This document shows positions 544 through 17,930 of a DNA stretch of 24,652 bases, in pieces (the stretch's first letter is position 1; the number at the start of each line of letters is the position of its first letter). The position numbers and the translations under genes were made by a program. Under the pieces are notes generated by a model. The model did no database searches. It worked only from the letters and a program-made list of their open reading frames with translations, and was not told where the DNA came from. The DNA is from a virus (Duplodnaviria; Heunggongvirae; Uroviricota; Caudoviricetes): IMG/VR virus record IMGVR_UViG_2778261572_000014. One strand, given 5' to 3'.

Positions 544-1539
544 TTATGGGCAATATCTGGACAACTCAGCCACAGGATTAAAGCGCACAGCATCCTGCAG
601 ATAATCCGGTGCAAAATGGGCATAAGTCATCGTCTGCTGAATAGTGCTATGCCCAAGTATTCTCTGCAAAGTGATGATATTCCCACCATTAATCATGAAG
701 TGAGTGGCAAAGGTATGCCGTAAAACATGTATCGACTGCCCTTCAGGAAGATCAGGCCTCACCTTTCTGATAGCAGCTCTGACAGCGGCATAACTTGGAT
801 AAATTAAACGACCAGTGGCCTTTGTTTTAATCATGCACTCCAGTTCTGACGATATAGGTATAACGCGACGCTTCCCATTTTTGGTTTCCATAAAAATGAC
901 TTTGCCGCTAATAACATGCTCCCCCTTGATATTTGCAACCTCACTCCATCTTCCACCTGTTGCCAGACACAACAAGACAGCTTTTAATTCATCACCAGAT
1001 AACAACTCCAGTAATCGTGGAATATCTTCATGATACAAATAAGCCATTTCAGGCTGTTTGATATTAAGTTTTTTCACATCATGAAACGGATTAGCCCCAG
1101 AATATTCCTCTGCGTCAATTAGTTTTGTGAAGAAACCACTCATCATTGCGCAATAACGATTAACCGTGGATTGTTTTATTCCGCGGTTAAGCAACAATAA
1201 CCGATAATTAATTATGTTCTTACGAGTAAGTTGGTCGCTGCGTGTAACATTAATACTCTCAAGATCACTAATGACCGCAGAAATACGCACTCGCTCCATC
1301 GCACCGTAAGGATGATTTTTCCCGTGGTATAGCCACCAACAATCCAGCAACTCCCTCAGCGAGCGCCGTTCTGTTGGCTTATCAACCCAGTCTTTGTCGT
1401 GGTAATGCTGCAATACATGACGCTCATACAAAACAGCCTCACCACGAGTATCAAATCGCCGCCTGAATCTTTTTCCTTCTGATCCAGCTGGCCGCACGTC
1501 CACACAGAATTTGCCATTAGCGAGCTTCTTAATCGACAT
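544..1539 (-). CDS. int: Tyrosine integrase, P2 Int family
   Basis: 331 aa from ATG 1539, which has GGAGGG 7 nt upstream; the ORF track's upstream ATG at 1575 lacks an SD. N-terminus MSIKKLANGKFCVDVRPAGSEGKRFRRRFD parallels P2 Int; C-terminal HVLRHTFATHFMINGGNIITLQRILGHSTIQQTMTYAHFAP carries the R..H-R-H..Y catalytic box. Confidence 0.9.
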   Translation of the reverse strand: MSIKKLANGKFCVDVRPAGSEGKRFRRRFDTRGEAVLYERHVLQHYHDKDWVDKPTERRSLRELLDCWWLYHGKNHPYGAMERVRISAVISDLESINVTRSDQLTRKNIINYRLLLLNRGIKQSTVNRYCAMMSGFFTKLIDAEEYSGANPFHDVKKLNIKQPEMAYLYHEDIPRLLELLSGDELKAVLLCLATGGRWSEVANIKGEHVISGKVIFMETKNGKRRVIPISSELECMIKTKATGRLIYPSYAAVRAAIRKVRPDLPEGQSIHVLRHTFATHFMINGGNIITLQRILGHSTIQQTMTYAHFAPDYLQDAVRFNPVAELSRYCP

Positions 1540-1605
1540 AAGGAAGCCCTCCAATGAAAACATCATCTTGATCACAGCTCTGGGAAATAAATGCCTGGTG
1601 AACCG

Positions 1606-1905
1606 TTAACCAGTCTTCTTGCCGGAGCGGGATGATTCCGCTTCGCCTTGCCCAATGTGTGCGAGAGCCGGTACAACCTGCCCGGCCTTGGGTTCAACTT
1701 CATCAAACAAAAACCAGTCGCGGTACTTACGGAACATGGGGGCTTTCAGAAGCTTTTTTGTTGACTCAAGGTTGGGTTCATTTCGTCCTTGCTCATATTG
1801 CCTTAATGCAGCAAGAGTAAGCCCAGTAATCTCTGCCATTTTTTCTTGTGTAAGCATTTCTGACTTCCGCATGATGCGAATTTTCATAGCTACGGTAGTT
1901 GACAT
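1606..1905 (-). CDS. C: Immunity repressor, P2 C family
   Basis: 99 aa, the same length as P2 C. MSTTVAMKIRIMRKSEMLTQEKMAEITGL... and C-terminal PALAHIGQGE...SGKKTG align with remembered P2 C (IVLMRKSEYL...PALAHFGQNE...SGQKTG). Divergent from cox as in P2. No SD before the ATG. Confidence 0.85.
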   Translation of the reverse strand: MSTTVAMKIRIMRKSEMLTQEKMAEITGLTLAALRQYEQGRNEPNLESTKKLLKAPMFRKYRDWFLFDEVEPKAGQVVPALAHIGQGEAESSRSGKKTG

Positions 1906-2013
1906 AGTAAGTTAACTCACTTAGTTTATACATCAATTAACACACAACGAATTGCGCTAACTAGTTCTAAATGGTGCTAGTTAGAAGAAAGCACCAATAG
2001 CGGAGGATATCAG
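1906..2013. promoter_or_regulatory. C/cox divergent switch region (Pe/Pc-type promoters and operator)
   Basis: 108-bp gap between divergent C and cox starts. Contains inverted repeat CTAACTAG (1957-1964) / CTAGTTAG (1977-1984) and SD GGAGGA at 2002-2007 for the rightward gene. Confidence 0.5.
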
Positions 2014-2439
2014 ATGCAAGAAAGCACTCAAAACGCGCCTGAGTCACTTTGCGGAACACGATGCGATCGCCTGTCAGAAATGCCAGAGGGGGTGCATCAA
2101 AAAACAGGACGCAAAGCACGTGAACGTGAAGAAATTCGACTTTCAGAAAATCCCTCGCATCTCCTGTCAAAAGAAGGATTTGCGATGTATATCGGAAAGA
2201 CCGTTGACGCCATCGTAAGCATGGCCAAAGCAGGAAAGCTACCTGCGGTGTATATGGCGGACCCTCTTAAACCAGGCGGAAACGCTGAACTCTACATCAA
2301 CAGAAAAGCGTGGGATGAAGCATGCGATCGCCTCATCGAAAACGCACCTCAGGAATGGCACGACTGGGAAAACCGTCTGTTTTTGTTTAAGCCAACAAGT
2401 GGCAGACGAAACAGAAACATCAGCGGTAAAGCAGCATAA
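2014..2439 (+). CDS. cox: Cox-like excisionase/transcriptional switch protein (start uncertain)
   Basis: ATG 2014 has GGAGGA 6 nt upstream. Segment FAMYIGKTVDAIVSMAKAGKLPAVYMADP resembles the P2 Cox HTH region. 141 aa is long for Cox (about 90 aa); internal ATGs at 2080 and 2185 are alternatives. Confidence 0.55.
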   Translation: MQESTQNAPESLCGTRCDRLSEMPEGVHQKTGRKAREREEIRLSENPSHLLSKEGFAMYIGKTVDAIVSMAKAGKLPAVYMADPLKPGGNAELYINRKAWDEACDRLIENAPQEWHDWENRLFLFKPTSGRRNRNISGKAA

Positions 2440-2476
2440 CTCAAACCATAACTCATTTTAGGCGGAGTATTTTGAT

Positions 2477-2827
2477 ATGAAGGAACGGCGCAATTCTTCA
2501 CAGCAGCGCTTCCGCAACGGGGCGGAACGCCACGCTAACCGTTTCGCTACCAGCGCATCACGCAGCAGCTCTCGCTACAGCCTGAGCGAAACACACGCAA
2601 CACCTGATGGCCATCCCGTAAAACAAATTGGCGAACACACCTGGCTGATTGAAAAAGCTGGAATCGTGGTCCACAAATGCCCACGCAATCCGTTTACCGG
2701 AAACCGCATTTTTGCACTGTTCAACGGCGACAATCAGTTCGGACAGGATTTCACATTGTACGAAGCACTACGCACGGTTGATCGTCTGCTGCGTGGACAG
2801 AGTTTTATTAAACAGGCTGATTTATAA
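2477..2827 (+). CDS. Hypothetical early protein (116 aa), R/S-rich N-terminal half
   Basis: ATG 2477 with GGCGGAG 9 nt upstream, co-oriented in the early operon. No family recognised. Confidence 0.5.
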   Translation: MKERRNSSQQRFRNGAERHANRFATSASRSSSRYSLSETHATPDGHPVKQIGEHTWLIEKAGIVVHKCPRNPFTGNRIFALFNGDNQFGQDFTLYEALRTVDRLLRGQSFIKQADL

Positions 2828-2837
2828 CAGGTGCTTT

Positions 2838-3116
2838 ATGACTAAAGACCATACTCAAGGTGTATTTATCCGCTTTATTGATTCTCGCGGTGAACTGTTA
2901 TTGCGTGCATCAGCTATTAATGGTGTGGCCCAGGCAAAAGACGCAACCACTCATATTTATTTGGACAGCGCCGCACAACTGATCGTGGAGCTTCCGTACC
3001 AGACTGTACGTGAAGTCATTAGCGAAGCTGAAAAGGCACGTCAGATTAATAGCGATGAACCATACATCGAAATTATCTGCATGGATTCAGAAGCTGAAAT
3101 TAAGAAAGCAGATTAA
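2838..3116 (+). CDS. Hypothetical early protein (92 aa)
   Basis: ORF beginning MTKDHTQGVFIRF. The longer track ORF from 2649 overlaps the previous gene by 180 nt in another frame, so the internal ATG 2838 is preferred. Confidence 0.45.
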   Translation: MTKDHTQGVFIRFIDSRGELLLRASAINGVAQAKDATTHIYLDSAAQLIVELPYQTVREVISEAEKARQINSDEPYIEIICMDSEAEIKKAD

Positions 3117-3127
3117 AGGGCGTTGTG

Positions 3128-3370
3128 ATGGGCAAAGAATATAAAACTCTCATTAACAAAGCACTTGAGCGTTTTTATTTTCGCTTAAGCGCATCAGGCG
3201 CTCATGCTGAACGTGCAGCCCGTGACTCATTGACCAGGGCAATCCGGAGTCTGTATGACGTGGCTTTTTACGCTGATGATCTGGATGCACTTAACGAACT
3301 TTCCGAGCTTATCTGCGCAGCAGAATGCGGGGAACATATTGAACCGTATAAGCTGGGGAATATCGCATGA
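3128..3370 (+). CDS. Hypothetical early protein (80 aa)
   Basis: ATG 3128; the track start at 3125 is a GTG one codon upstream. Stop overlaps the next small ORF (ATGA at 3367-3370). Confidence 0.5.
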   Translation: MGKEYKTLINKALERFYFRLSASGAHAERAARDSLTRAIRSLYDVAFYADDLDALNELSELICAAECGEHIEPYKLGNIA

Positions 3371-3480
3371 ATATATTTATTTCGTGGCTTGTTCTGATTT
3401 TTTCGGTGGTTTGCGCAATTGGTATTATGCGAATTATTCATTCAGTAAAAAAGATTGAACGTTTTTTCACTGGCGAATAA
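3367..3480 (+). CDS. Small hydrophobic peptide (37 aa), predicted single-pass membrane peptide
   Basis: MNIFISWLVLIFSVVCAIGIMRIIHSVKKIERFFTGE: one hydrophobic helix followed by a basic tail. Translationally coupled to the upstream ORF by ATGA overlap. Below the ORF-track size cutoff. Confidence 0.3.
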   Translation: MNIFISWLVLIFSVVCAIGIMRIIHSVKKIERFFTGE

Positions 3481-3573
3481 CAGCATAAACAAAACACAAG
3501 ATTAAATACGAAAACATGAAAACCATCCGCATTCGCGGAGGCGTTCGCACACGTAAATAACGGAGATACAAAA

Positions 3574-3948
3574 ATGTACGCAAAAGAAGAAGGCATTATT
3601 CACAACCTGAATGAAATCGCAGATATGCAAGGTGAAGTAGCAAAAGAAGCCATGGCGAATGGCCACATGGACACCGCAACTCTCTCATTAATAATCGCCA
3701 AAACTGCTACTGAAGCCGCTGAAATCATCGAAAAACAGGCTGCCGAGCTGGAAGTTATCAGGGCACAGCAAACAAAAGAAAATTCGCCAGCCACCAATAT
3801 CGGCAAGCGAGTTCGCCTCGCTGTTGCTGACGACAAAATTTACATCATCGTAGCCGAGTCTAAAGACCAGGAGAAACTCTTAATTAAGGAGATCTCCGCC
3901 AACCCCGCTCTGGAAGCTAATAAAAAAGAAGTCCGCTTCATTGACTGA
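3574..3948 (+). CDS. Hypothetical early protein (124 aa), acidic, helical-looking
   Basis: ATG 3574 with GGAGA 7 nt upstream; the antisense ORF 3600-3836 is rejected. Confidence 0.55.
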   Translation: MYAKEEGIIHNLNEIADMQGEVAKEAMANGHMDTATLSLIIAKTATEAAEIIEKQAAELEVIRAQQTKENSPATNIGKRVRLAVADDKIYIIVAESKDQEKLLIKEISANPALEANKKEVRFID

Positions 3949-3960
3949 CGGAATAACGCA

Positions 3961-4287
3961 ATGGAGAGACTGAAATACATCGTGGCCCTGCTGGGCCACA
4001 TCATCAGGACCGCAACCGGCTTTTACTATCGCCCGTTCAGTGCGTCATGGGATGGGGCATTAGAACAACTACTGGGTGAAGGTTCACTCGTAACCGTGAA
4101 TCGGCATAACGCGATTTTTTATTACGGCGAGAACTTCTTTGAGGTGTGGGTAGCTAACCGCTGGTATGGCTACGGCTGGCTTAACCGCGTTAATGGTTCT
4201 GACGCCAACAATCGAACTCGCCCACGCTTTCGCACCATGTACCGCCTGCATCAAATGGTGCAGGCCTTCCAGGCTAAGGAAACGTAA
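3961..4287 (+). CDS. Hypothetical early protein (108 aa), aromatic-rich
   Basis: ATG 3961, co-oriented. No family recognised. Confidence 0.5.
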   Translation: MERLKYIVALLGHIIRTATGFYYRPFSASWDGALEQLLGEGSLVTVNRHNAIFYYGENFFEVWVANRWYGYGWLNRVNGSDANNRTRPRFRTMYRLHQMVQAFQAKET

Positions 4288-4490
4288 TGGCAATTAAGAA
4301 ATTTACCGTCATTCGTTTCACCTCCAGAGGGCGTGAATACGAAGTTGACGAACGGCTGATTAAAACGCTCGACCGTCACCGTTCGCAACCTGACGCGCAT
4401 CACATTTATCTCATAGACGACACATACTTCTGCGCCACGAATGTGGTGCAAGTGAACCTTATCCGACAGATACAGGAGTCACGAAGATGA
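4287..4490 (+). CDS. Hypothetical early protein (67 aa)
   Basis: ATG overlaps the preceding stop (TAATG), AAGGA upstream. Stop overlaps the next start (ATGA at 4487-4490). Confidence 0.5.
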   Translation: MAIKKFTVIRFTSRGREYEVDERLIKTLDRHRSQPDAHHIYLIDDTYFCATNVVQVNLIRQIQESRR

Positions 4491-4786
4491 CCATTCTGGA
4501 CTATATCGCCGCCAATCCGGGGTGTAGTGGCGGAGAAATCGCCGCAGCACTGAATACCCCAACCACAGCTATTAATGCGGAGTTACGCCGACTCTGGCGC
4601 AGCGGCTTAGTCATCAGAGAAGAACGCAAAACAGGTGGTCGGTTCTCTTACCAGGTAAACCCGATGCCGTTCGGGTGTGGCAACCCACTAACCCTCATGT
4701 TTAACCAGCTACTGAAGGAAGCCAGAGCATGCACAAAGCCTTTGAACGATGGATGCGCCAGCGTTATGGCAATCGCTACGACCTGA
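4487..4786 (+). CDS. Winged-helix DNA-binding protein (99 aa)
   Basis: ATG 4487 with CAGGAG 9 nt upstream. LDYIAANPGCSGGEIAAALNTPTTAINAELRRLWRSGLVIREERKTGGRFSY has the helix-turn-helix-wing pattern of MarR/wHTH domains. Confidence 0.55.
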   Translation: MTILDYIAANPGCSGGEIAAALNTPTTAINAELRRLWRSGLVIREERKTGGRFSYQVNPMPFGCGNPLTLMFNQLLKEARACTKPLNDGCASVMAIATT

Positions 4787-4876
4787 CGAGAGATACCGAT
4801 GGCTACTACTGTCGCGAAATTGTGAAACGAATGTTTGAAGTGTGGTGCCACCGCCGCGGTTTATACGCCGTGTAAA
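4730..4876 (+). CDS. Possible small overlapping ORF (48 aa)
   Basis: ATG 4730 with AAGGAAG 8 nt upstream; MHKAFERWMRQRYGNRYDLTRDTDGYYCREIVKRMFEVWCHRRGLYAV. Overlaps the 3' end of the previous gene in another frame. Confidence 0.25.
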
Positions 4877-4902
4877 GCACCACCACTAACGGGGTAAGAA
4901 AT

Positions 4903-5463
4903 ATGCACAACTTCAAACTCAAACCAATGGGTACACCTGGCGTGGCTCCGGCACATGTAAAGCCATGGACACAACAGGAAGATGAAATGCTTATCTCGCT
5001 TTATCCGGAGTGCAACACGCACCAGATAACTGAACGAATTCAACGAACCCATGACGCAGTTATGCACCGACTTAGTTTTTTACGTGATCGTGGATTGATT
5101 GGCCGCAAGAAAAAGACACTGAGTGCAAAAGAGATCGCCTTTCTCATCGAAAACCGCCGCGCCAGAACAGCGCGGGAACTGGCCGCCGAGGCGGGATGCA
5201 CCCCTCGCACCGTACAAGCACACCTGAATAAACGTGGTTACAGCCTACAAAAATGCGGGGAACTCCATCACCTGACCAAATACAGCGATCACCTGGTAGA
5301 ACTGGTGACTGAACTACATGATGAGCAGCACATGACGTTCGCCATGATAGCAAAACACATTAATCACACACTGCAAATAAAAATCACCACTCGCACAGCA
5401 CGTTCTCTTTACGGTCGCCGAGTCGCTGCTGACGCCGTACTGTACGAGCTATTACCAAACTGA
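4903..5463 (+). CDS. Putative DNA-binding early protein with two HTH-like segments (186 aa)
   Basis: ATG 4903. HTH-like stretches THQITERIQRTHDAVMHRLSFL and TARELAAEAGCTPRTVQAHLNKRG. Confidence 0.5.
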   Translation: MHNFKLKPMGTPGVAPAHVKPWTQQEDEMLISLYPECNTHQITERIQRTHDAVMHRLSFLRDRGLIGRKKKTLSAKEIAFLIENRRARTARELAAEAGCTPRTVQAHLNKRGYSLQKCGELHHLTKYSDHLVELVTELHDEQHMTFAMIAKHINHTLQIKITTRTARSLYGRRVAADAVLYELLPN

Positions 5464-5583
5464 GTGATCATAATGCACACACAAAAAAACCGCTTGCCAT
5501 GCCGCAATCAGTCAGGTTACATTTCCGCTGCACCTCATAAAACGGGTGCCGGGTTTCGCAGCCTGCTGACTACAAGAGCGCAC

Positions 5584-5604
5584 AACCGCGCCAGCGGTTT
5601 TTTT
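5584..5604 (+). terminator. Intrinsic terminator candidate inside the early operon
   Basis: AACCGC-GCCA-GCGGTT stem-loop followed by a T-run (TTTTTTT through 5604), about 120 bp after the 4903-5463 ORF. Confidence 0.45.
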
Positions 5605-5783
5605 GTGCGTACTGTATTGCCACGTTTTTTTCGCGTCAGAATTATGGCGGGGCGTACGGGGCCGACTTCGGTCGGGCCGGGATCTCTTGTAGCCGGTACT
5701 GCGAACCTCGTACGTCTCGCCACCCACAGTTTCGCAGCTCTGGATGGTGAGTTTTCACAACTTACTACAAGAGGCCACATATC

Positions 5784-6014
5784 ATGGCAAACCGCAAACA
5801 GCACCGCACTATCGCGGAGCGTCGTCACATCCAGACTGAAATCAACCGCAGACTTTCCCGCGCATTCCGCGTCGCTAAAATCATGCACATCAATATGCTG
5901 CATGAGCGTAGCTGCGAACTTTCAAACCTCTATTCATCCGCTGTTTTCAGCTATCTGGCGGATGATCTGCGCGAGCTTCAACAGCTCATCCAGCAGCAAA
6001 ACAAACTCCATTAA
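5784..6014 (+). CDS. Hypothetical early protein (76 aa), basic
   Basis: ATG 5784 with AAGAGG 9 nt upstream. Balanced composition, unlike the overlapping S/T/R-rich 5464-6090 frame, which is rejected. Confidence 0.5.
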   Translation: MANRKQHRTIAERRHIQTEINRRLSRAFRVAKIMHINMLHERSCELSNLYSSAVFSYLADDLRELQQLIQQQNKLH

Positions 6015-6086
6015 TTCCTGTTCCGGGCCTTTCCTGCACCTTGCGGCGGGAGGCCTTCGCACATCTGTAACAAGAGGATTGCCGCA

Positions 6087-6452
6087 ATGATTCTCGCCAA
6101 CGACTTTCTTGAATACCTGCTCAACACAGAACGTGATCTTGCCGCTCGCGTGCGTGATCGTTATGACATGTACCTGAAATCCCTGCCTGTACCGCAGCTC
6201 GCTGACGGAAAGATTGTTATTGATGGTCGCTACATGATTGACAGCCACGAGGGAAATTACAGGCTTTACCGCATTGAAGGTGGCACCCCGTCCGTTATTG
6301 GCATTTACCAGCGCCCATCCTCTGCAATTGTCGATGTGATTGCCGACAGCATCCGCATCACACATCGCCATGCCGACACAGAAGACACCGTGCTGGAAAT
6401 TCAGCGGCTGGCTGCCGTCTGCCGCGACACCCTGAATGGCATGACGAAGTAA
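6087..6452 (+). CDS. Hypothetical early protein (121 aa), immediately upstream of A
   Basis: ATG 6087 with AAGAGG 9 nt upstream. Confidence 0.5.
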   Translation: MILANDFLEYLLNTERDLAARVRDRYDMYLKSLPVPQLADGKIVIDGRYMIDSHEGNYRLYRIEGGTPSVIGIYQRPSSAIVDVIADSIRITHRHADTEDTVLEIQRLAAVCRDTLNGMTK

Positions 6453-6458
6453 ATCACT

Positions 6459-9281
6459 ATGACGGCAGAGTACATCAGGGACTGGCAACAACCGCGCCAC
6501 GCAGTGGGACGTGAAGGAACGGGGATCCCCGTTCCTGAATCTGCGCTTTCCTCCTGGCTGGATGCCTACCGGGCAGAGAACGAGCGCCGCCAGGAAATGG
6601 CTGATGCGGCGTTCTCCGCCACGCCGCTGGGCAACCTGATTAATAAAAGCCTGGATGCACAGGAAAAACAGGACAAAACCATCACACTGGCAGGAGACGC
6701 CAGAAAACAGGCACGCGGCGCGGTGGATGAAGCCATGGCCTCGCTGCGCCTGCTGCCGTCCTATCTGCGCGATCCGCTTATTCGCCACCTCTCCTTCCTG
6801 CGCAAAAAACAGGAAGTCGATCGCCGGAAAGGCAAAAAGAGCTGGCAGGCTGAACGCTACGCGCGCGGAACCCTGCGCAAAATATTCGAACGTCTGGATC
6901 GCACTGACGGACACTGGCTGACACCGGGTTATCGCTTCCTTGCCGGACGCGAACGCCTGGACGATTTGCTTTACCTGCCGCAGCTCAACAAACACCAGAT
7001 ACAGACGCTGGCCACCATGACGGCGGCGATGTTCAGCAGCACCTTCGAAAAACTCTGCGATGGCTTTGGCGCGACCGATGGCGAACTGACCATGGATGTA
7101 ACGCTGAAGGCGTATCAGATGCTGGCCCGCATGGCGTTACACCTGCACATCATGCCTCCACATTATGACGCACTGACAACAGATAAAGACCGGAGGAACG
7201 AACCGGACACGGAGCTGCTGCCGGGCGCAATCCTTCGCCTGACCTGTGCGGAATGGTGGAAACGCAAACTGTGGCTGTTACGTTGCGAGTGGAGAGAAGA
7301 ACAACTCCGCGCCGCCTGTCTGGTTTCCAGAAAAACATCACCCTATCTGAGCCAGGACGCGTTAAGCGAGTTTCGCGCACAGCGCGAGAAAACACGCGAT
7401 TTCCTGAAAAGTTTCATGCTGGAAAACGAAGACGGGTTCACGATTGATCTCGAGACAGTGTATTACGCGGGAGTAAGTAACCCGGTTCACCGTAAGGCAG
7501 AAATGATGGCCACCATGAAGGGGCTGGAACTTCTGGCCGAAGCCCGTGGCGACAAAGCGGTGTTTCTGACTGTCACCTGCCCGTCAAAATACCACGCCAC
7601 AACAGAGAACGGTCATCCGAATCCCAAATGGAACGGGGCCACCATGCGCGACTCCAGCGATTACCTGGTTAACACGTTTTTTGCAGCGGTCCGCAAGAAA
7701 CTGAACCGCGACGGCCTGCGCTGGTATGGCATCCGCACGGTGGAGCCTCACCATGACGGCACCGTGCACTGGCATATGATGGTCTTTGCTCATCCGGAAG
7801 AAATCGACACCATTGTGTCCCACACCCGCGATATTGCCATTCAGGAAGATCGTCACGAGCTGGGTGATGATATTACCCCACGCTTTAAGGCGGAGTACGT
7901 CGACGGCTCAAAAGGCACGCCAACCAGCTACATCGCCACCTACATCGGAAAGAACCTGGACAGCCGCGCCGTGGATGGCATCGACCCGAAAACGGGCAAG
8001 CCACGCGTTGACCACGAAACAGGTAAATCAATGGCCGAGAGCGTGGAGCGCGCCATCGGCTGGGCGCGCCTTCACCGGGTCCGCCAGTTCCAGTTCTTTG
8101 GCATCCCCTCCCGTCAGGTGTGGCGTGAACTCCGCCGCCTTGCCAGCCAGATGGCACGCAACCCGGAAGGCCCGCAACGGCTGAAGGATGACGCAATGGA
8201 TGCGGTACTCGCTGCCGCTGATGCCGGATGTTTTGCCACCTACATTGAAAAACAGGGTGGCGTACTTGTTCCGCGCAAGGACTACCTGATTCGCACAGCC
8301 TACGACCTCGCAGATGAGCTGAACGATTACGGCGAACAGAGTGTACAGATTTACGGGATCTGGTCGCCATTCATCGGGGAATCCTCCCGTGTGTGCACGC
8401 ATCCGGATAACTGGAAGCTGGTAAGACGTAAACCGGAAGCGGAAGACAGCGCCCGCGAAAATGGTTTTGACCTTCAGGGCGGCCCTGCCGCCCCTTGGAC
8501 TCGTGGCAATAACTGTCCCCGTGTACAGGAAACGGACAACAACGGGACAGAACAGCCGGAAGAACGGCCAGCACCGTGGCCGCAGCTCCCTGACGGCGTT
8601 GAAGTGAACGAATGGATGCGCTCACTGAAACGGCACGAACGCCGGGCGCTGATGCGTTCGCTTCGTGACAAACAGGCAAAAAACAGCAGTGATGAAATGC
8701 AGAGCTGGACACAGAGCCGCAAACAGCAGCGGCCTTTGCCTGATAACCACGAATTACTCGCTAAAGAATGGCGGGAGTCTGCCGAATCTCTCGGCCTGCA
8801 TATCGGTGAACAGCAGATGCAGCACCTGTTACGGGGCGGCAGCCTGTACGTTGACGGCAGCATCATTGCACCGCAGGGATTTGAAATTGTACGCAAACCG
8901 GATACCCGCCCGGACAGCCGAATCACGCAGCTCTGGCAGCGCCTGAGCCGTAATCACGGCGTAAGCAGCACGGAGATCCGCCATAACCCGGTCGCCGGCT
9001 ATCTGGAACAGCTGGGGATATCAGACCCCGAAGCCGCCGCACGCCTGGCATCCACACTTCAGCAGGACCAGAACACCATGAAAACCCCCGTTACCGTGCT
9101 TTCTGACATGCTGCGCGCCATCCGTGACGCAGAGCACGCACAGAGAATCAGTGAAACCACTGAACGCGCCCGCCGCAAAGCAGACCTGCTGCGGGGTAGC
9201 CTGACCAGTGGAAACAAAAAACAGACAGAAACGGGATTCATAAAACCCGTAAATGAGCAAAAAACGCGCCGCGATATATGA
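6459..9281 (+). CDS. A: Rolling-circle replication initiator endonuclease, P2 gpA family
   Basis: 940 aa. Contains TVTCPSKYH and RTVEPHHDGTVHWHMMVF (HUH-type motif), followed by YIATYIGKN, as in P2 A (LTAPSKYH, RVVEPHHDGTPHWHMMLF). C-terminal third is long and low-complexity. Confidence 0.9.
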   Translation: MTAEYIRDWQQPRHAVGREGTGIPVPESALSSWLDAYRAENERRQEMADAAFSATPLGNLINKSLDAQEKQDKTITLAGDARKQARGAVDEAMASLRLLPSYLRDPLIRHLSFLRKKQEVDRRKGKKSWQAERYARGTLRKIFERLDRTDGHWLTPGYRFLAGRERLDDLLYLPQLNKHQIQTLATMTAAMFSSTFEKLCDGFGATDGELTMDVTLKAYQMLARMALHLHIMPPHYDALTTDKDRRNEPDTELLPGAILRLTCAEWWKRKLWLLRCEWREEQLRAACLVSRKTSPYLSQDALSEFRAQREKTRDFLKSFMLENEDGFTIDLETVYYAGVSNPVHRKAEMMATMKGLELLAEARGDKAVFLTVTCPSKYHATTENGHPNPKWNGATMRDSSDYLVNTFFAAVRKKLNRDGLRWYGIRTVEPHHDGTVHWHMMVFAHPEEIDTIVSHTRDIAIQEDRHELGDDITPRFKAEYVDGSKGTPTSYIATYIGKNLDSRAVDGIDPKTGKPRVDHETGKSMAESVERAIGWARLHRVRQFQFFGIPSRQVWRELRRLASQMARNPEGPQRLKDDAMDAVLAAADAGCFATYIEKQGGVLVPRKDYLIRTAYDLADELNDYGEQSVQIYGIWSPFIGESSRVCTHPDNWKLVRRKPEAEDSARENGFDLQGGPAAPWTRGNNCPRVQETDNNGTEQPEERPAPWPQLPDGVEVNEWMRSLKRHERRALMRSLRDKQAKNSSDEMQSWTQSRKQQRPLPDNHELLAKEWRESAESLGLHIGEQQMQHLLRGGSLYVDGSIIAPQGFEIVRKPDTRPDSRITQLWQRLSRNHGVSSTEIRHNPVAGYLEQLGISDPEAAARLASTLQQDQNTMKTPVTVLSDMLRAIRDAEHAQRISETTERARRKADLLRGSLTSGNKKQTETGFIKPVNEQKTRRDI

Positions 9282-9329
9282 AGCGCGCATAAAACAGGCA
9301 AAAACGGGATTTAAAAACCCCGTAAACGA
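9229..9329. repeat. Two 28-bp direct repeats (24/28 identical), each with internal ACGGG...CCCGT dyad; candidate parC-like centromere/operator
   Basis: R1 9229-9256 AAACGGGATTCATAAAACCCGTAAATGA and R2 9302-9329 AAACGGGATTTAAAAACCCCGTAAACGA, 73 bp apart, directly upstream of parM. R1 overlaps the last codons of A. Confidence 0.45.
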
Positions 9330-9357
9330 TTAATTAATCAACATAAGGAAAATCGAC

Positions 9358-10317
9358 ATGAAAATTTGTATCGACGACGGCTCCACCAACATCAAGCTGG
9401 CATGGACTGAGAACGGCGAACGCCGCAACGCCATCAGCCCGAACAGCTTCAAATCGGAATGGTCTGCGCCGTTCGGTGGCATACAGCCCGCGAACTACAT
9501 GCTTGATGGCGTGCGCTATGGTTTTGATCCGGTCAGCGATCGCTTTGTCCAGACGACCGACACGCAATACCAGTACAGCGATGTGAATGTAATTGCCATT
9601 CATCACGCGCTGGTCAAATCAGGCATCACGCCACAGGAGGTGGATGTGGTTGTCACCCTGCCACTGAGCGAGTATTTCGACACAAACGCACAGCCGGACA
9701 TGGCCAACATCAACCGCAAAAAAGCAAACGTCATGCGCCCGGTGGCGTACCAAAACGGAAAAGCATTCACTATCCGTAACGTACGGGTTATGCCTGAATC
9801 CATTCCGGCTGGTTTTAAAGCACTGGCTGACATGAGTCCGTTTGAATCCCTGCTGATTGTGGATTTAGGCGGAACCACGCTGGATGTGGCAAAGGTTCAG
9901 GGGCAACTGGCAGGTATCAGCCAGGTGTTTTGCGATCCACACGTAGGCGTTTCCCTGATGGCCGATGCCGTACTGTCGGTGATGGCCACTAACGGTATGC
10001 GTACCAGTCACCACATCGCCAATACCATTATCGAACATCGCCATGATGAAGCCTGGCTGCGCCAGCACATCCACAATGACGCGCATTACGCCAGCCTGAT
10101 GGCGGTTATTCGTGAAAAGGAAGAAACACTGAAACAACGCGTGATCCGCGCGCTGGCGGGTTTTTCGGGTTACGGGCGGGTGATGGTTGTCGGTGGTGGG
10201 GCGGAGATTGTGGCACCCGCTATCCGCGAAGCCTGCGGAGTTAATGCGACTTTCATCACGGACGGGGTGCCACAGTTTGCTCTGGTTAATGGGCTGTACG
10301 CAATGGACAAGGAGTAA
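9358..10317 (+). CDS. parM: ParM/StbA-family actin-like segregation ATPase
   Basis: 319 aa, ATG 9358 with AAGGAA upstream. MKICIDDGSTNIKLAW..., YSDVNVIAIHHAL, VMPESIPAG, LIVDLGGTTLD, VMVVGGGAE, LVNGLY run in register with remembered plasmid R1 ParM (MLVFIDDGSTNIKLQW..., LIIDLGGTTLD, VMVIGGGAE, LVNGMY). Confidence 0.85.
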   Translation: MKICIDDGSTNIKLAWTENGERRNAISPNSFKSEWSAPFGGIQPANYMLDGVRYGFDPVSDRFVQTTDTQYQYSDVNVIAIHHALVKSGITPQEVDVVVTLPLSEYFDTNAQPDMANINRKKANVMRPVAYQNGKAFTIRNVRVMPESIPAGFKALADMSPFESLLIVDLGGTTLDVAKVQGQLAGISQVFCDPHVGVSLMADAVLSVMATNGMRTSHHIANTIIEHRHDEAWLRQHIHNDAHYASLMAVIREKEETLKQRVIRALAGFSGYGRVMVVGGGAEIVAPAIREACGVNATFITDGVPQFALVNGLYAMDKE

Positions 10318-10321
10318 ACCA

Positions 10322-10633
10322 ATGACGACACCAACCAGACGGATAAGTTTCTATCTGAAGCCCGCCGCCGTCAAGAACGAAGGTGAAGCATGCGCCTGGC
10401 TGGACAGCCTTACACCAGAAGCTCGCAAAAGCGGCCAACGCGTGGCTTTTCTGGCCGGGCTGGCACTTCTGAAAATGAATCCGGCAGAGGCTTACCGACT
10501 GGCTGCATGGGCTGATGATGAGGCGTTATCAGTGACACAAACCAGGGCAGAACACCACATGTTACAGCCAGCGCCCACCGCACAGATAACCAGCCAGCTA
10601 GCCGGAAATATCCGGGCGTTATTTCCTGAATAA
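10322..10633 (+). CDS. parR: ParR-like centromere-binding adaptor (ribbon-helix-helix)
   Basis: 103 aa, ATG 10322, 4 nt after the parM stop, AAGGAG upstream. RRISFYLKPAAV...LDSLTPEARKSGQRVAFLAGLALL...IRALFPE parallels R1 ParR (RRTIAFKLNPDV...LDSIPQGERSRLNRAALTAGLALY...LRSLFPKE). Confidence 0.7.
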   Translation: MTTPTRRISFYLKPAAVKNEGEACAWLDSLTPEARKSGQRVAFLAGLALLKMNPAEAYRLAAWADDEALSVTQTRAEHHMLQPAPTAQITSQLAGNIRALFPE

Positions 10634-10639
10634 CACAAC

Positions 10640-10661
10640 ATCAGGGCGAGTTCGCCCTGAT
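10640..10661. promoter_or_regulatory. Perfect 22-bp palindrome between parR and the PP-loop gene
   Basis: ATCAGGGCGA-GT-TCGCCCTGAT (9-bp arms), no U-tract; followed 12 bp later by AAAGGAGG and the GTG start of the next gene. Confidence 0.4.
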
Positions 10662-10685: not shown

Positions 10686-11693
10686 GTGAGCATCATTCAG
10701 CGCTGCCGAGCAGAAAACACTTTTAATTTGGTTTCCATGTCTGGCGGGAAAGACTCACTGGCGCAATGTTTGTATGCCATAGAAAACGATATACAGCATG
10801 AGCGAGTGTTTGCTGATACGGGACACGAACACCCACAAACGATGGAGTACCTTGACTACCTGGAACAAAAGCTGGGCCCAATTCGTCGCGTAAAAGCCGA
10901 CTTCACTCGCCAGATAGAAGGTAAGCGCAAATTCATTGCTGAAAAATGGCCAGTATCTCTTGTTGCAGAGTGCGGAATGACGCCTGATGAAGCAGCGGAA
11001 CGTGTTGCTCGTGCGCTGGAAATCCTCCACCCAACCGGAAATCCATTTCTTGACCTGTGCATGTGGAAAGGTCGTTTCCCGAGCACTAAAGCGCGGTTCT
11101 GTACATTCGAACTGAAACACGAACCAGTGCGCACTCAGGTGGTGCAACCTGCGCTTGATGAATATGACGAAGTTATCTCCTGGCAGGGCGTGCGTGCTCA
11201 GGAATCGCCATCGAGGGCACGCCTGCAAGTGTGGGTGGAGGATGCGGACAATACCCCCGGATTGCATGTCTATCGTCCGATTCTCAACTGGCTACATGAG
11301 GATGTTTTCGCTATTGCCAGGCGTCACGGGATTAAACCCAACCCACTCTACCAACAAGGATGCAGCCGCGTTGGGTGTATGCCATGCATTCATGCCAGAA
11401 AATCTGAACTGGCGGAAATTTTTCAGCGCTGGCCAGAGGAAATCGCCAGAGTGGCAGAGTGGGAACGATTAGTTGCAGCCTGCTCTCGCCGCGGCAACTC
11501 AACGTTTTTCCCGTCAACTCATGACCCGCGCCGGGCAGAATGTCGCATAGATGTTGTTACCGTAGACAGCTACGGAATCGAAACCTATCGCGACTGGGCA
11601 ATGACAACCCGGGGCGGCGCTCAATTTGACCTGCTGGCGAGCACGAACGATAAGGCGGTGTGCAACAGTGTTTATGCGGGAGTATGCGAATGA
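10686..11693 (+). CDS. PAPS-reductase-family PP-loop ATP pyrophosphatase-like protein (DndC/CysH-like fold), function unknown
   Basis: 335 aa. GTG start 10686 with GGAGG 6 nt upstream; no upstream in-frame ATG. N-terminal VSMSGGKDS PP-loop, FADTGHEHPQT, WQGVRAQESPSRA, and C-terminal cysteine cluster CSRVGCMPC. Confidence 0.8.
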   Translation: MSIIQRCRAENTFNLVSMSGGKDSLAQCLYAIENDIQHERVFADTGHEHPQTMEYLDYLEQKLGPIRRVKADFTRQIEGKRKFIAEKWPVSLVAECGMTPDEAAERVARALEILHPTGNPFLDLCMWKGRFPSTKARFCTFELKHEPVRTQVVQPALDEYDEVISWQGVRAQESPSRARLQVWVEDADNTPGLHVYRPILNWLHEDVFAIARRHGIKPNPLYQQGCSRVGCMPCIHARKSELAEIFQRWPEEIARVAEWERLVAACSRRGNSTFFPSTHDPRRAECRIDVVTVDSYGIETYRDWAMTTRGGAQFDLLASTNDKAVCNSVYAGVCE

Positions 11694-11768
11694 ACAGCAT
11701 GAAAATATTGTTACCCGACATCTGATTTTACTTCTTCAAATCAGGGCAATAATCACGCATCGCCCTGC

Positions 11769-11795
11769 TGCACAATAGTGCACAAATTTGCACAA
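11769..11795. repeat. Three TGCACAA direct repeats at exact 10-bp phasing
   Basis: TGCACAA at 11769, 11779 and 11789, followed by a T-run, in the non-coding interval where P2 architecture places cos and the cargo-locus promoters. Confidence 0.4.
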
Positions 11796-12167
11796 TTTTT
11801 TTGAACGACTTTTTACCCTTCCGGCCCGCATGGCGGCTGGATCCGTCAAGGATCCGTGCGTGCACAAAAAAACGCGTTTTTTCTGCGCGCAGGTGACGGG
11901 GGAACAGCCCGCGTTTCTGGGGGTAAATAGCGTTCCCTTAACGATGTCGCAGCGACACGACAGAATGGCCGTATTTCTCACGCTGAGCGTGAAAAATACG
12001 TGAGGGATTCTGGTTTGATGGGGTGAAAGGTAAGGCCGTCAAAATCGCACTGAGGCGGCGAGAACATGCAGTCAGCGCAGTGGGATTGCGTAAGAATCTG
12101 ACCGTCGATGATGGCAATAAGCAGGAAAGCATCGTGAAATTATCTGACTGATACAGGAGCTGGAGAG

Positions 12168-12192
12168 TCGGGGCATAAATTTTTTATGCCCC
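12168..12192 (-). terminator. Strong stem-loop 28 bp downstream of Q; terminator or packaging-region element
   Basis: CGGGGCATAAA-TTT-TTTATGCCCCG, a perfect 11-bp inverted repeat; lacks a clean U-tract on the Q strand. Confidence 0.35.
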
Positions 12193-12219
12193 GGCGAAGC
12201 AGCAGACAAGCGAAGCGCG

Positions 12220-13266
12220 TCAGGATGTGGGCTGGGTATCTAACAGTGCGTAAGGGTTAAAGCGGATCACCTCTTCGCCAAGCCAGTCATTGATGTGCTT
12301 CATGGCCTCCATGACGGGCATCAGCTCGTTAATTGCGTAAACCCGCGCGGCCTTCTCCACATCACCAAACGCACTTTTTTCGCCCGGCATCGCCCCCATC
12401 AGTTGCGGCGGAACGCGGTGCGCAGCCAGCACATCATCACGGGATGCCGCCTTAACATTCATGAACTCATCCTTTGCGGTGATCTGCTGGAACGGCAAAA
12501 TTTGCACCCCCTCTTTGCCCCCGTTGGGCGCATGAATGAGCACGTTTTTAAACGCACCACCACCACGTGCCCCCTGTAGCGTTTCTTTCAGGGAGTCCAT
12601 GCTTTCGCGGTTTACCTGCGCTGCACCGATGTAGATGATGCACCCGGCGTGGGATCCGTTGTCGTAGTACAGTTTTCTGAACATGTCCGCCGAATGAGAA
12701 AGGCTGGCCGAGAGTAATGCGCCAAGATATTCCGGCATGCCGTAGATTTCCTGGTTAATATCCGGATTCATCAGGTGGCACACTTTGCCAGGACGAAACT
12801 GAAACGCGTCCTTGCCATCCTGCACATACCACCATGATTCAAGATCGCTTCCGCGTCGCATGTATTTCGCCAGGGCGTGCCGTAATTTAAGCGGTTCGCC
12901 GAGCATATTGCTCCGAAGCTCAAGGAATGCGTTACCGAACACAAACCAGTCCAGCGCCAGCGCCGAGAAATCCTGCCGGGAAAGCAGCGGGTGCGGAATA
13001 TAGCAGCCGAGCAATACATTGCGCTTAAAGTAAAGCGCAGACTGATGCCAGGACGTTTGCCGGGCAGCTCTTGCCAGACCGTACCAGTTCACCGGGGTTT
13101 CATACCACCGCCCGTTATCAGCACAGTACATATTGTCCAGCAGGTCATGCCCGGTCAGGCGATAAGGACCATCAAATGTGAATGCACTGAGCGATGATTC
13201 TTTCCTGAGCGCATCAGCGAGATCAATGCGTGAACTCATGCGCACTTTTTTATTTTTTCTGCTCAT
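12220..13266 (-). CDS. Q: Portal protein, P2 gpQ family
   Basis: 348 aa (P2 Q about 344 aa). Minus strand directly downstream of P, with its ATG overlapping the P stop. Position and size match the P2 Q-P capsid operon. Confidence 0.85.
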   Translation of the reverse strand: MSRKNKKVRMSSRIDLADALRKESSLSAFTFDGPYRLTGHDLLDNMYCADNGRWYETPVNWYGLARAARQTSWHQSALYFKRNVLLGCYIPHPLLSRQDFSALALDWFVFGNAFLELRSNMLGEPLKLRHALAKYMRRGSDLESWWYVQDGKDAFQFRPGKVCHLMNPDINQEIYGMPEYLGALLSASLSHSADMFRKLYYDNGSHAGCIIYIGAAQVNRESMDSLKETLQGARGGGAFKNVLIHAPNGGKEGVQILPFQQITAKDEFMNVKAASRDDVLAAHRVPPQLMGAMPGEKSAFGDVEKAARVYAINELMPVMEAMKHINDWLGEEVIRFNPYALLDTQPTS

Positions 13267-15017
13267 CAGAACTCCATAACCGTGAAACGCTCGTTTTCTC
13301 CTTCGCCGCCAATCGGTTCATTAATGACAGCAAGCATGGTTGCCCACGCAAGGTCGCCGTGGCTGATCCCCCTCGCTCGGTCCGTTTCGTAAGTGATAAA
13401 GCCGCCCGGTGTTTTCACCTTACGTACGGCGTTAAAGGCCGCGACCAGCTCGCGTTCGGCACGATCGTATTCCCACCGCCCGGCACGCATTATTTGCAGC
13501 ATTTTCAGTACCAGCGACCGTTTTGATGACAGCGTGAAGGTGTACGGAATAGCAGCAGGGAAAAACCGTTTCACTATCTGATAAACGGCATCCCCGTGCC
13601 CGCCAGTCGCATCAATGCCGATGTGTTCCACGTTGTAGCGACACGTGAACTCTTCAATGACTCTGGCCTGTTCTTCAAACTCCAGCCCCTGAACGCGTCG
13701 CGTCTCCACCGTTCGAAAACGGCCACCAGGAACAGCCGGAGGAACCACCACGGACACCGCGCCGCTGTCGCCGTTTCCACTGCTGCCGTTTGCGTCATAC
13801 CCAATCCATACCGGACGATTCCCCATCGGGCGGGGAGCAAAAGGTTTCCAGTCTTTCCAGTCGTCGTATCCGTCAACACCGCAGCCAATCAGGATATTCA
13901 GGTTAAATGCCGATTCCCCTTCGCGGACAAACTCACACATATAGAGATTGCGGAACTCGTCTTCGGTGTTTTCATCACGAATTTCATCAATATCGGTGTG
14001 TTTCCAGCCGTGATTAACCACATCTTCCAGCGTGACAATTTGCCGCCACGTCCGGTCGGGGCAGATAAGTCCGTTATGCAGCGTTTTCCAGTCCACAGAA
14101 AAACGCTGGCGTTTATGCGCGGCCTTTTTCTCGTTCCAGCGGTCGCCGTTCCAATAGACGTATGCCTCGTGCGTTTCGGTGGATGGCGTGGAGAAGTAGG
14201 TGCGCCGCAGTCCGCTGAGGGTTGCCATAGCGCCAGCCACCTTGCGCAGTTCAGCAAAGCGACTGACCCAGAAAAATTCATCAAAATAAAAATTGCCTGT
14301 GTAGGACTGTGCCGTCGCAGCAGAAGTACCGAGAAAATGCAGTTCTGCGCCGTTGGAGAGGATGATTTTATCGCCCCCTTTCAGCTCCACATCAACTTCA
14401 GCCGCGGCCTTCTGAATAATGCTTTTAAACTGGAACGCCTGACGACGCGACGCAGACAAAAAAATCTGGTTACGCTGGTAAGGTTGTGCCACATCGTCAC
14501 GCAGCGCCATCAGCAGTGCTTCCTGTGCAAAATACCAGGTCGCCCCAATCTGTCGGGATTTCAGGATCATCCTGTTACGTATCCCGGCTTCACTGCAAAG
14601 GGTCAGGGAGTCAAACCAGCCCCGCTGATGCCACTCCAGCCTGCTGATGATTTTTTCCCGCAGTGCGGCAATCTGCTCCGGCGTGAAATGATTTTTAAGT
14701 TTTTTCGCCCGGCCTTTCTTTCCTGTGGCCGTCGCATCCGGCTGGCCATCATGCAGTTTTTTAAGCTGCCGGGTCAGCAGGTCTATTTCCTTAAAGTCAC
14801 CACCTGTTTTATTCTGTTTTTCAGTAAGCTGGATGAGGCGCGCATCGATGGACTGCGTGACACGCTGCACGGGTGGCGTTTCATCCCACTGGTCGCGTTT
14901 TTTCCACGCATAAATCGTGTTCGGGTTTATTCCCATCAGACGTGATATTTCTGCGGGCGGATAACCCTGCCAGTAAAGTTGCCGCGCACGCTGGCGCACA
15001 AAAGCGTCCTGAATCAT
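13266..15017 (-). CDS. P: Terminase large (ATPase) subunit, P2 gpP family
   Basis: 583 aa (P2 P about 590 aa), divergent from O as in P2. Confidence 0.85.
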   Translation of the reverse strand: MIQDAFVRQRARQLYWQGYPPAEISRLMGINPNTIYAWKKRDQWDETPPVQRVTQSIDARLIQLTEKQNKTGGDFKEIDLLTRQLKKLHDGQPDATATGKKGRAKKLKNHFTPEQIAALREKIISRLEWHQRGWFDSLTLCSEAGIRNRMILKSRQIGATWYFAQEALLMALRDDVAQPYQRNQIFLSASRRQAFQFKSIIQKAAAEVDVELKGGDKIILSNGAELHFLGTSAATAQSYTGNFYFDEFFWVSRFAELRKVAGAMATLSGLRRTYFSTPSTETHEAYVYWNGDRWNEKKAAHKRQRFSVDWKTLHNGLICPDRTWRQIVTLEDVVNHGWKHTDIDEIRDENTEDEFRNLYMCEFVREGESAFNLNILIGCGVDGYDDWKDWKPFAPRPMGNRPVWIGYDANGSSGNGDSGAVSVVVPPAVPGGRFRTVETRRVQGLEFEEQARVIEEFTCRYNVEHIGIDATGGHGDAVYQIVKRFFPAAIPYTFTLSSKRSLVLKMLQIMRAGRWEYDRAERELVAAFNAVRKVKTPGGFITYETDRARGISHGDLAWATMLAVINEPIGGEGENERFTVMEF

Positions 15018-17129: not shown

Positions 17130-17930
17130 ATGATTACCCCTGCACAGCAACACTGGCAGAACGTGATGGCGCAGCGCGCAGGCCGGGCGAATGAAGGCGT
17201 GGATCACGCCGCACGTACCGCGCATGAAGAGGTGCTGTATCGTCTGCGTCTGGCACAGGCCCGACTTAAGGGCGTACAGGCCAGAAGCGCCAAAGCCGCC
17301 ATCAAAAAAGAGTTGTTACCGGACTTTTCCGGCTGGATTGAAGGAACGCTGGAGGCTGACGGCGGGCAGCAGGATGAGGTGATTGCCACGCTGATGGTGT
17401 GGGCGATTGACTGTGGCGATCTTCCGCTGGCATTGCGTATTGGTGCGTATGTGGTCCGTCACAACCTCATCATGCCGGATAACTTTGGCCGTACTGCTGC
17501 CACAGTGCTGACCGAAGAAATCTGCAACCCGGTACTGACGCAGGCCGGGACGGATGCCGACGCGGATTTGTCCGCCTTTATCGAACCACTGGACACCCTC
17601 CGGGAGATTGTCACCGACCAGGATATGCCGGACGAAGTACGCGCCAAATTATGCAAGGCGTGCGCCTTTGCCCGCCGTGGCCTGAGCGATGCGGACAGCA
17701 TGGCCCTGTCACTGAAGCTGCTGCGCGAAGCGATGCACCTGAACCCGAACGCAGGTGTGAAACGCGAGATTGCAACCCTTTCCCGCGCCCTGAAAAAAGC
17801 CGATTCCGCAGCCGCCCCAGATGACGCCAGCGCACAGCAGGCGCAGGACGAAAGCAGCAAAAGTAAAAAGACAACGCGGAAGCCTGCAACACGAAAAACC
17901 ACCGCGACGCAGAAGGCGAAGCGCGTTTAA
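17130..17930 (+). CDS. M: Terminase small subunit, P2 gpM family
   Basis: 266 aa. N-terminus MITPAQQHWQNVMAQRAG and internal MPDEVRAKL parallel remembered P2 M; basic K/R/T-rich C-terminus. Confidence 0.85.
   Translation: MITPAQQHWQNVMAQRAGRANEGVDHAARTAHEEVLYRLRLAQARLKGVQARSAKAAIKKELLPDFSGWIEGTLEADGGQQDEVIATLMVWAIDCGDLPLALRIGAYVVRHNLIMPDNFGRTAATVLTEEICNPVLTQAGTDADADLSAFIEPLDTLREIVTDQDMPDEVRAKLCKACAFARRGLSDADSMALSLKLLREAMHLNPNAGVKREIATLSRALKKADSAAAPDDASAQQAQDESSKSKKTTRKPATRKTTATQKAKRV

Follow-up and report, generated by a model that had tools for sequence, protein, structure and literature searches.

The cohesive-end sites (cos) of phages P2, 186 and PSP3 and of the satellite P4, all with 19-nt 5′ cohesive ends, are the closest described counterparts of the locus presented here. 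In the records of P2 and 186, cos lies directly before the portal gene, while accessory genes, e.g., old, are found on the opposite side. cos is also the only homologous region between P2 and P4 (PMC9122126). Longer flanks around the "55-bp" P4 cos carried on a cosmid improve transduction by P2 about 10^4-fold (PMC9594776), an effect that would fit a role for distal elements. Another member of the P2 family, phiCTX, has a 21-nt cohesive end and its record annotates repeats R3-R6 and an IHF site around cosL/cosR. Finally, the cosB of phage lambda, which uses IHF, combines the gpNu1 R-sites with the IHF site I1 and is alike in principle, with short terminase-recognition repeats placed beside the nicking site at a fixed distance.

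We have analysed the interval 11694-12219 of a 24,652-nt stretch of viral DNA, hereafter the window. The element that it very probably holds is of an ordinary, expected kind, namely a P2-family cos with a lineage-specific motif, and its predicted position can be given within a few bases.

Genomic context

The window represents a P88-type prophage of the P2 family (genus Xuanwuvirus), and the best DNA matches to positions 11600-12300 are phage P88 (98%), 520873, Chuche and P88_4B11. The interval extends from the stop codon of the cargo ORF to the stop codon of the portal gene Q, and the genes relevant to its position are:

6459-9281, gpA replication protein
9358-10317, ParM
10322-10633, ParR/StbB-like protein
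10686-11693, plus strand, cargo protein of 335 aa, PAPS-reductase / SspD / DndC-like
12220-13266, minus strand, portal gene Q (Phage_portal), which anchors the P2-type layout
13266-15017, minus strand, large terminase P (Terminase_6N, Terminase_6C, Terminase_5)
17130-17930, plus strand, small terminase M (Phage_term_smal)

The gene order is P2-type: gpA, the cargo, the interval, Q and P on the minus strand, then O, N and M on the plus strand. From this architecture the preliminary description, made from the sequence alone, had expected cos between the cargo locus and Q, and the expectation is sound because of where the P2 and 186 records place the cohesive end. As at the cos of P2, 186, PSP3 and P4, the site is located between the accessory or cargo region and the portal gene, with the terminase genes adjoining; the distance from the core to Q is 309 bp in the window versus approximately 167 bp in P2. 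The same expectation is supported by the repeat layout, which is that found at the cos of these four elements, and by the retention of the site in a satellite (see below). Overall, the interval very probably contains cos, and we regard it as likely that it is the packaging site of this P88-type (Xuanwuvirus) P2-family prophage, with a functional unit spanning approximately 11769-11930.

The cargo gene sits in the P2 defence hotspot beside cos, alone and without other Ssp/Dnd partners; its PAPS-reductase-domain product gives SspD, BrxP and DndC as best PADLOC matches. In the early region, Rfam matches at gathering score were obtained for isrK (5530-5604) and for C4 antisense RNA (5640-5727), which suggests a P1/P7/P4-style antisense-RNA immunity element in a P2-family phage.

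Layout of the repeats

The elements of the candidate site are, from left to right:

11769-11795, plus strand, distal array R1-R3, three copies of TGCACAA
11796-11803, plus strand, T7-G run directly 3′ of R3
11804-11860, plus strand, spacer of conserved length and variable sequence
11861-11872, plus strand, proximal repeat R4, TGCACAA plus A-run
11892-11910, plus strand, predicted core of the cohesive end (cosN-like), GGTGACGGGGGAACAGCCC, with a single exact occurrence in the window
11911-11930, plus strand, right flank of the core, GCGTTTCTGGGGGTAAATAG, the last stretch in common with the satellite

The three TGCACAA repeats reported initially are indeed spaced by exactly 10 bp from start to start (11769, 11779, and 11789), and a fourth copy is present at 11861. 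Taken singly, the heptamer shows no enrichment (8 copies in the window vs. 7 expected), and the phased triple occurs once in the window and in none of 100 shuffles, even with three mismatches allowed.

The records of the four reference elements (P2, 186, P4 and PSP3) either begin at the cohesive ends or have them annotated, and the right and left termini of each were joined so that the positions could be compared. Counted from the base at which the cohesive end begins, all four have TGCAT repeats at about -123, -111, -101, and -29, the last of them, TGCATTAAAACC, being the counterpart of R4. In the window, the TGCACAA copies are found at -123, -113, -103, and -31 from the core start, i.e., R1-R3 occupy the same positions as in the references. 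The layout derived in this analysis from the four reference sequences, with three distal repeats some 100-125 bp and a single proximal one some 30 bp leftward of the core, is thus also that of the window. We then considered 11 elements, i.e., P2, 186, PSP3, P4, the window, phiT5282H, the satellite, the prophage L010, and prophages in Arsenophonus, Symbiopectobacterium and Salmonella diarizonae. Across this set the distance is 82 bp from R2 to R4, 72 bp from R3 to R4, and 36 bp from R4 to the CGGGG of the core, each being off by 1 bp in at most one element. The spacers of the P2 group and of the P88 group have no alignable similarity, and yet the repeat frame is the same. The comparison with the cos of P2 and 186 that had been proposed at the outset therefore places the window repeats in the same 82/72/36-bp frame.

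The likeness to P2, 186, PSP3 and P4 comprises four TGCA-containing repeats in the same orientation with identical spacing, a G-rich core with GCA|GG on its left and CGGGG inside, an inverted repeat separating the proximal repeat from the core, and the sharing of the site by helper and satellite. In the window, R4 lies in the left arm of this inverted repeat, which is imperfect (11857-11871 / 11877-11891). On the other hand, the references have the repeat TGCAT(N) and known ends, whereas the window has TGCACAA and predicted ends; R1 and R2 are 10 bp apart in the window and 9-13 bp apart in the references; and the T7 run after R3, near-invariant in the window lineage, is absent from P2, 186 and P4. 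Judging from these sequence comparisons, the TGCACAA repeats very probably represent the lineage version of the four-repeat cos layout.

A conservation profile built from 37 representatives below 90% identity shows that most spacer columns between approximately 11828 and 11857 have less than 60% agreement. The spacer also contains a semi-conserved CCCTTCCGGCCC at 11816-11827 and two copies of GGATCCGT (11839-11846 and 11850-11857), the latter specific to P88-like phages.

The array directly abuts the variable cargo hotspot, whose right-hand edge coincides with the first base of R1, since homology to other P88-like phages begins at 11768/11769 and the DNA to the left is variable cargo. In addition, R2/R3 together with the T-run give the only terminator-like call of the region, a weak one, and the TGCAT array of P2 is found approximately 25-55 bp upstream of the mapped old-tin transcript starts. 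These features could indicate a transcriptional element of the cargo hotspot (a terminator or insulator, an operator, or a promoter) located near cos incidentally, an explanation that we consider very unlikely. The terminator-like stem is just 5 bp, no sigma-70-like promoter was found in 11600-12320, and in 186 a terminator is annotated separately, upstream of the array. Moreover, the array is unchanged next to unrelated cargoes in either orientation, the satellite retains it without that operon, and fixed distances to the core would be unexpected of a terminator. A second, transcriptional role for an array belonging to cos is possible.

Conservation of the array

About 115 P2-like loci were retrieved from IMG/VR using the core 16-mer alone. 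Conservation of the core within this core-selected set is circular; that of the array is not, because the search key excluded it. The full three-plus-one repeat pattern is found in 82 of the 87 distinct upstream sequences, and four more differ by single bases. Despite the divergence of the spacer, R1 and R4 are separated by 92 bp in 80 of these 82 full-pattern sequences, and R4 and the core by 31 bp in 78. The array is kept even in phages whose gpA is about 32% and whose Q is about 70% identical, and which have no ParM. The presence of the array in related phages, which the preliminary description had singled out for checking, is thus near-invariant, and its spacing persists in diverged P2-like phages. 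A scan of genome contigs for GCACAA-N4-GCACAA-N4-GCACAA was too loose and returned mostly unrelated repeats; the only useful matches were those in Arsenophonus, Symbiopectobacterium and S. diarizonae.

Type II centromeres consist of phased direct repeats, as does the array, and homologues of ParM and ParR are encoded 1.1 kb upstream of it; the array could therefore be taken for a parC-like centromere recognized by the ParR/StbB protein of the phage ParM-ParR system (9358-10633). However, the array occurs without ParM in phiT5282H, in many IMG/VR phages, and in the satellite, and P2, 186 and P4, none of which is known to have a partition system, possess an equivalent array. Furthermore, parC of type II (ParMRC) systems co-occurs with parM/parR and lies just upstream of parM, whereas the array is downstream of parR, and the usual parC position is held by separate 25-bp near-repeats. 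A centromere function of the array is hence so improbable that it can practically be set aside.

The partition genes form a type II pair, ParM (StbA_N / ParM_N) plus the ParR/StbB-like protein (9358-10633), in an integrating P2-like prophage. The near-repeats, AAACGGGATT(C/T)A(T/A)AAA(A/C)CCCGTAAA, are found just upstream of parM at 9229-9253, within the 3′ end of gpA, and at 9302-9326, and could be the parC of this parM.

The cos region of the window is present in approximately 1,150 of 5,426 complete E. coli genomes. Placing cos in such a common E. coli prophage type helps to set genome start points, to predict which satellites a helper can mobilise, to build P2/P4-style transducing particles, and to interpret the defence hotspot that abuts cos.

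Two IMG/VR contigs (L069 and L132) contain a hybrid prophage whose left part (gpA, ParM) is P88-like, while the portal and large terminase of its head module are only 30% and 34% identical, respectively, to those of the window; the phage collection holds no relatives of the L132 head module. In both contigs R2 is fused directly to R4, so that R3 and the spacer are missing (an 82-bp deletion). This prophage may be a recombination product formed at the repeats. If these prophages are viable, the distal array would be dispensable for their different terminase, and they thus represent a natural test of the need for it.

A satellite island with the same site

A low-identity match led to an island of approximately 10 kb in E. 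coli NCTC9082 (L009, about 1000-10640). Its products include an Icd-like protein, a Toprim replication protein, an integrase, an Ogr/Delta activator, and a major capsid protein of the P2 family (423 aa), whereas its annotation lists no genes for a portal, a terminase or a tail. From this gene content we infer that the island depends on a helper. A P4-style satellite with its own capsid protein seems unusual. A MazEF pair follows the capsid gene.

With the cos region of the island as query, the island was found in 53 of 5,426 complete E. coli genomes. Approximately 400 further records also matched, and nearly all the matches listed cover only query positions 302-468, which extend from R1 to about 20 bp past the core and correspond to window 11768-11930. 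Seen from the window, the stretch shared with the satellite (H99) covers 11768-11928. The functional unit was delimited to approximately 11769-11930 because this segment is all that the satellite and the P88-like prophages have in common. Sharing of the site with satellites that depend on the helper terminase, typical of cos, thus extends to the NCTC9082 island, where, as for P2 and P4, cos alone is common to helper and satellite.

The predicted cohesive-end core

The core was placed at 11892-11910 on the basis of its alignment with the P2-like core of L010 and of the left context of 186. It aligns column for column with GGCGAGGCGGGGGAGCAAGC of L010, a prophage of E. coli 23CRST028, which in turn closely resembles the P2 cos GGCGAGGCGGGGAAAGCAC, and the left context GCA|GG is common to 186. 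The direct alignment of GGTGACGGGGGAACAGCCC with the P2 sequence requires the removal of 2 nt from the left half. The window therefore has the G-rich core and the GCA|GG and CGGGG landmarks of experimentally defined cohesive ends, with a 2-nt gap needed in the comparison. In an alignment of seven elements the array is invariant and the spacer variable; TGCACAAAAAA, again conserved, comes next and is followed by GCGCGCA-GGTGACGGGGGAACAGCCC. In Enterobacter phage phiT5282H (Novemvirus) only 11769-11913 is matched: the core is identical and the similarity ends just after it. Hence, GGTGACGGGGGAACAGCCC at 11892-11910 is the best cohesive-end candidate. The predicted nick positions carry an uncertainty of about 2 nt, since homology points to 11892, while counting the conserved 29 bp from R4 would put the nick at 11890 (11890-11908).

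The more distant phiCTX has an R4-like element, GTGCAGAAAAAGAGG, and AGTGCAGAAAAAGAGG...TTTAGAGCGG|AGGCGTGGCGGGG, its proximal element, is similar to the combination of proximal repeat and core in the window and in L010. It differs in having the heptamer GCAGAAA at -82, -36, and -27, and distal repeats of the AATTACC type that are further away.

Could cos be located elsewhere in the interval? The preliminary description had noted the weak resemblance of a G-rich motif, GAGGCGGCGAG (12052-12062), to a P2-type cos end, and one linear GenBank record, that of P88_4B11, starts 78 bp upstream of the core (window ~11813/11814). The motif is present but is not the core: it is found in a spacer that is absent from the Novemvirus-type phages (e.g., phiT5282H) and from the satellite, which have the same core as the window. 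Likewise, position 11814 lies in the variable spacer and resembles no mapped P2-type end, and we read the start of the P88_4B11 record as arbitrary. As the core at 11892 does align with P2-type cohesive ends, either alternative location is highly improbable.

Among the records of the phage collection, none has the predicted core as its start. Some loci seemed to start 5-61 nt before it; these starts were rejected as DNA ends because they are storage-block edges and not contig ends. In the IMG/VR contig L083 an IS1 end (GGTAATGACTCC...) abuts 2 bp before GGTGACGG; the IS1 insertion, 2 bp to the left of the core, splits all four repeats from it, and this contig was likewise discarded as evidence for a physical end.

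Phage Chuche (L003 3156-3170, corresponding to window 11892-11910) is without 7 bp (GGAACAG or equivalent) inside the predicted core. This could be either an assembly artefact at physical DNA ends or a real variant; in the former case it would support the placement of the core.

Candidate readers of the repeats

The repeats are most likely terminase-recognition elements of an extended cos, a proposal based on their cos-linked layout, their conservation in diverged phages, and their sharing with a satellite. In the mechanism that we propose, the phage terminase would read the four same-orientation TGCACAA heptamers through either the N-terminal helix-turn-helix (HTH) of gpP or the small subunit gpM. 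Counted from R4 (0 bp), R2 and R3 are at distances of 82 and 72 bp, which are close to whole numbers of helical turns, and the bound subunits would therefore lie on about the same face of the DNA. The bound terminase would then position the nuclease at the core, a fixed 36 bp from R4, and staggered nicks at the G-rich 11892-11910 would generate P2-style cohesive ends.

The preliminary description had suggested that the array suits cooperative binding by a packaging or architectural protein, such as a small terminase, an IHF-like protein, or a regulator. The packaging part agrees with the P2-type layout and with retention by the satellite, binding itself being predicted; the IHF part finds no counterpart in the sequence, as no match to WATCAANNNNTTR with at most one mismatch exists in 11694-12219. 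The window therefore differs from lambda cosB, where an IHF site lies between the repeats. Furthermore, the window repeats are direct and those of lambda inverted, the two terminase families are unrelated in sequence, and the lambda repeats are placed between the nick site and the small-terminase gene, whereas here they are to the left of the core with Q, P and M to the right.

These data also bear on the possibility that the repeats are part of cos and serve as binding sites for an architectural protein of the host, such as IHF, Fis or H-NS, or act by intrinsic bending, the terminase reading only the proximal 55-bp region. The precedent of lambda cosB, the IHF site annotated approximately 300 bp from cos in the phiCTX record, the invariant T7 run after the array, and the accessible literature, which gives only a 55-bp conserved P2/P4 cos, would all be compatible with this explanation. 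However, besides the lack of an IHF consensus, the motif switches from TGCAT to TGCACAA between lineages that both infect E. coli, which favours a co-varying reader encoded by the phage over a common host protein. On balance, we judge a host protein or DNA bending to be an unlikely basis for the repeats.

As for a terminase reader, two sequence types can be distinguished in the N-terminal HTH of gpP, and likewise two at the N-terminus of gpM; in both proteins the division follows that of the repeats into a TGCAT and a TGCACAA group. In the gpP HTH, for instance, P2 and 186 have RPTVQSWKQRD, while all the TGCACAA elements have N-x-N-T-I/V-Y-A/S-WKKRD. This covariation does not identify the reader, because it is confounded by phylogeny and both proteins co-vary with the repeat type; no solved structure matches gpM or gpP by sequence.

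It is conceivable, and we put this forward tentatively as somewhat less than an even chance, that the one or more bases following TGCA serve as a recognition code for the terminase within the fixed 72/82/36-bp frame, co-evolving with the gpP HTH or gpM and defining packaging-compatibility groups. The members of such a code would be TGCAT (P2, 186, PSP3, and P4), TGCACAA (P88- and Novemvirus-type phages plus the satellite), and possibly TGCAG in phiCTX. If true, the code would divide P2-family helpers and satellites into groups compatible for packaging. In any case, repeats of fixed geometry and variable motif offer a direct handle on DNA recognition by P2-type terminases. The prophage L010, in which a TGCACAA array is combined with a P2-like core, hints at separable modules, one for recognising the repeats and one for cutting the core.

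Hairpins and small ORFs in the remainder of the interval

To the right of the candidate cos unit the following features were found:

11970-12000, no strand assigned, inverted repeat with 15-nt arms, outside the shared cos module
12023-12151, plus strand, ORF of 42 aa, hypothetical in P88, which contains GAGGCGGCGAG; judged non-coding and not cos
12169-12193, minus strand, hairpin with a perfect stem of 11 bp and a loop of 3 nt, located 26 nt past the stop codon of Q

The absence of convincing coding sequence, reported earlier for the interval, held up. None of the four ORFs of 42-81 aa matches a PHROG family, and an Rfam search of the interval gave no match at E ≤ 1. A small protein from 12023-12151 was rejected: in addition to the lack of a PHROG match, variable sites are distributed 22/19/20 over the three codon positions, i.e., with no periodicity, and frameshifts or stops occur in 7 of 57 distinct homologues. 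The remainder of the interval, 11931-12219, is a lineage-specific non-coding spacer.

The inverted repeat at 11970-12000 is stable, with a z-score of -5.6 for the minus strand. The inner part of the stem does not vary, the pair 11973/11997 is an A.G mismatch in 42 of 57 homologues, and neither convincing covariation in these homologues nor a U-tract was detected.

The strong hairpin mentioned in the preliminary description corresponds to 12169-12193, whose arms (12169-12179 / 12183-12193) are 100% complementary. In a 76-nt context it folds with -26 to -33 kcal/mol (z = -4.6 to -5.5), and it is almost invariant in 57 homologues, with no informative covariation. No T-run flanks it on either strand and the intrinsic-terminator scan makes no call. 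It is the positional counterpart of tQ of P2 and tW of 186, which are annotated just after the portal gene, and we propose with moderate confidence that it terminates or stabilises the P-Q transcript.

Finally, some P88-like phages have an insertion of approximately 620 bp between cos and Q, so that Q starts 955 instead of 332 bp after the core. It is present in L025, L032, L034, L061, L066, L094 and other loci, as well as in phages vB_EcoM-569R5, vB_EcoM-705R2 and PhiR44_2, and is annotated in one record as encoding a putative exported protein. The insertion has the look of a further, small cargo slot located across cos from the hotspot.
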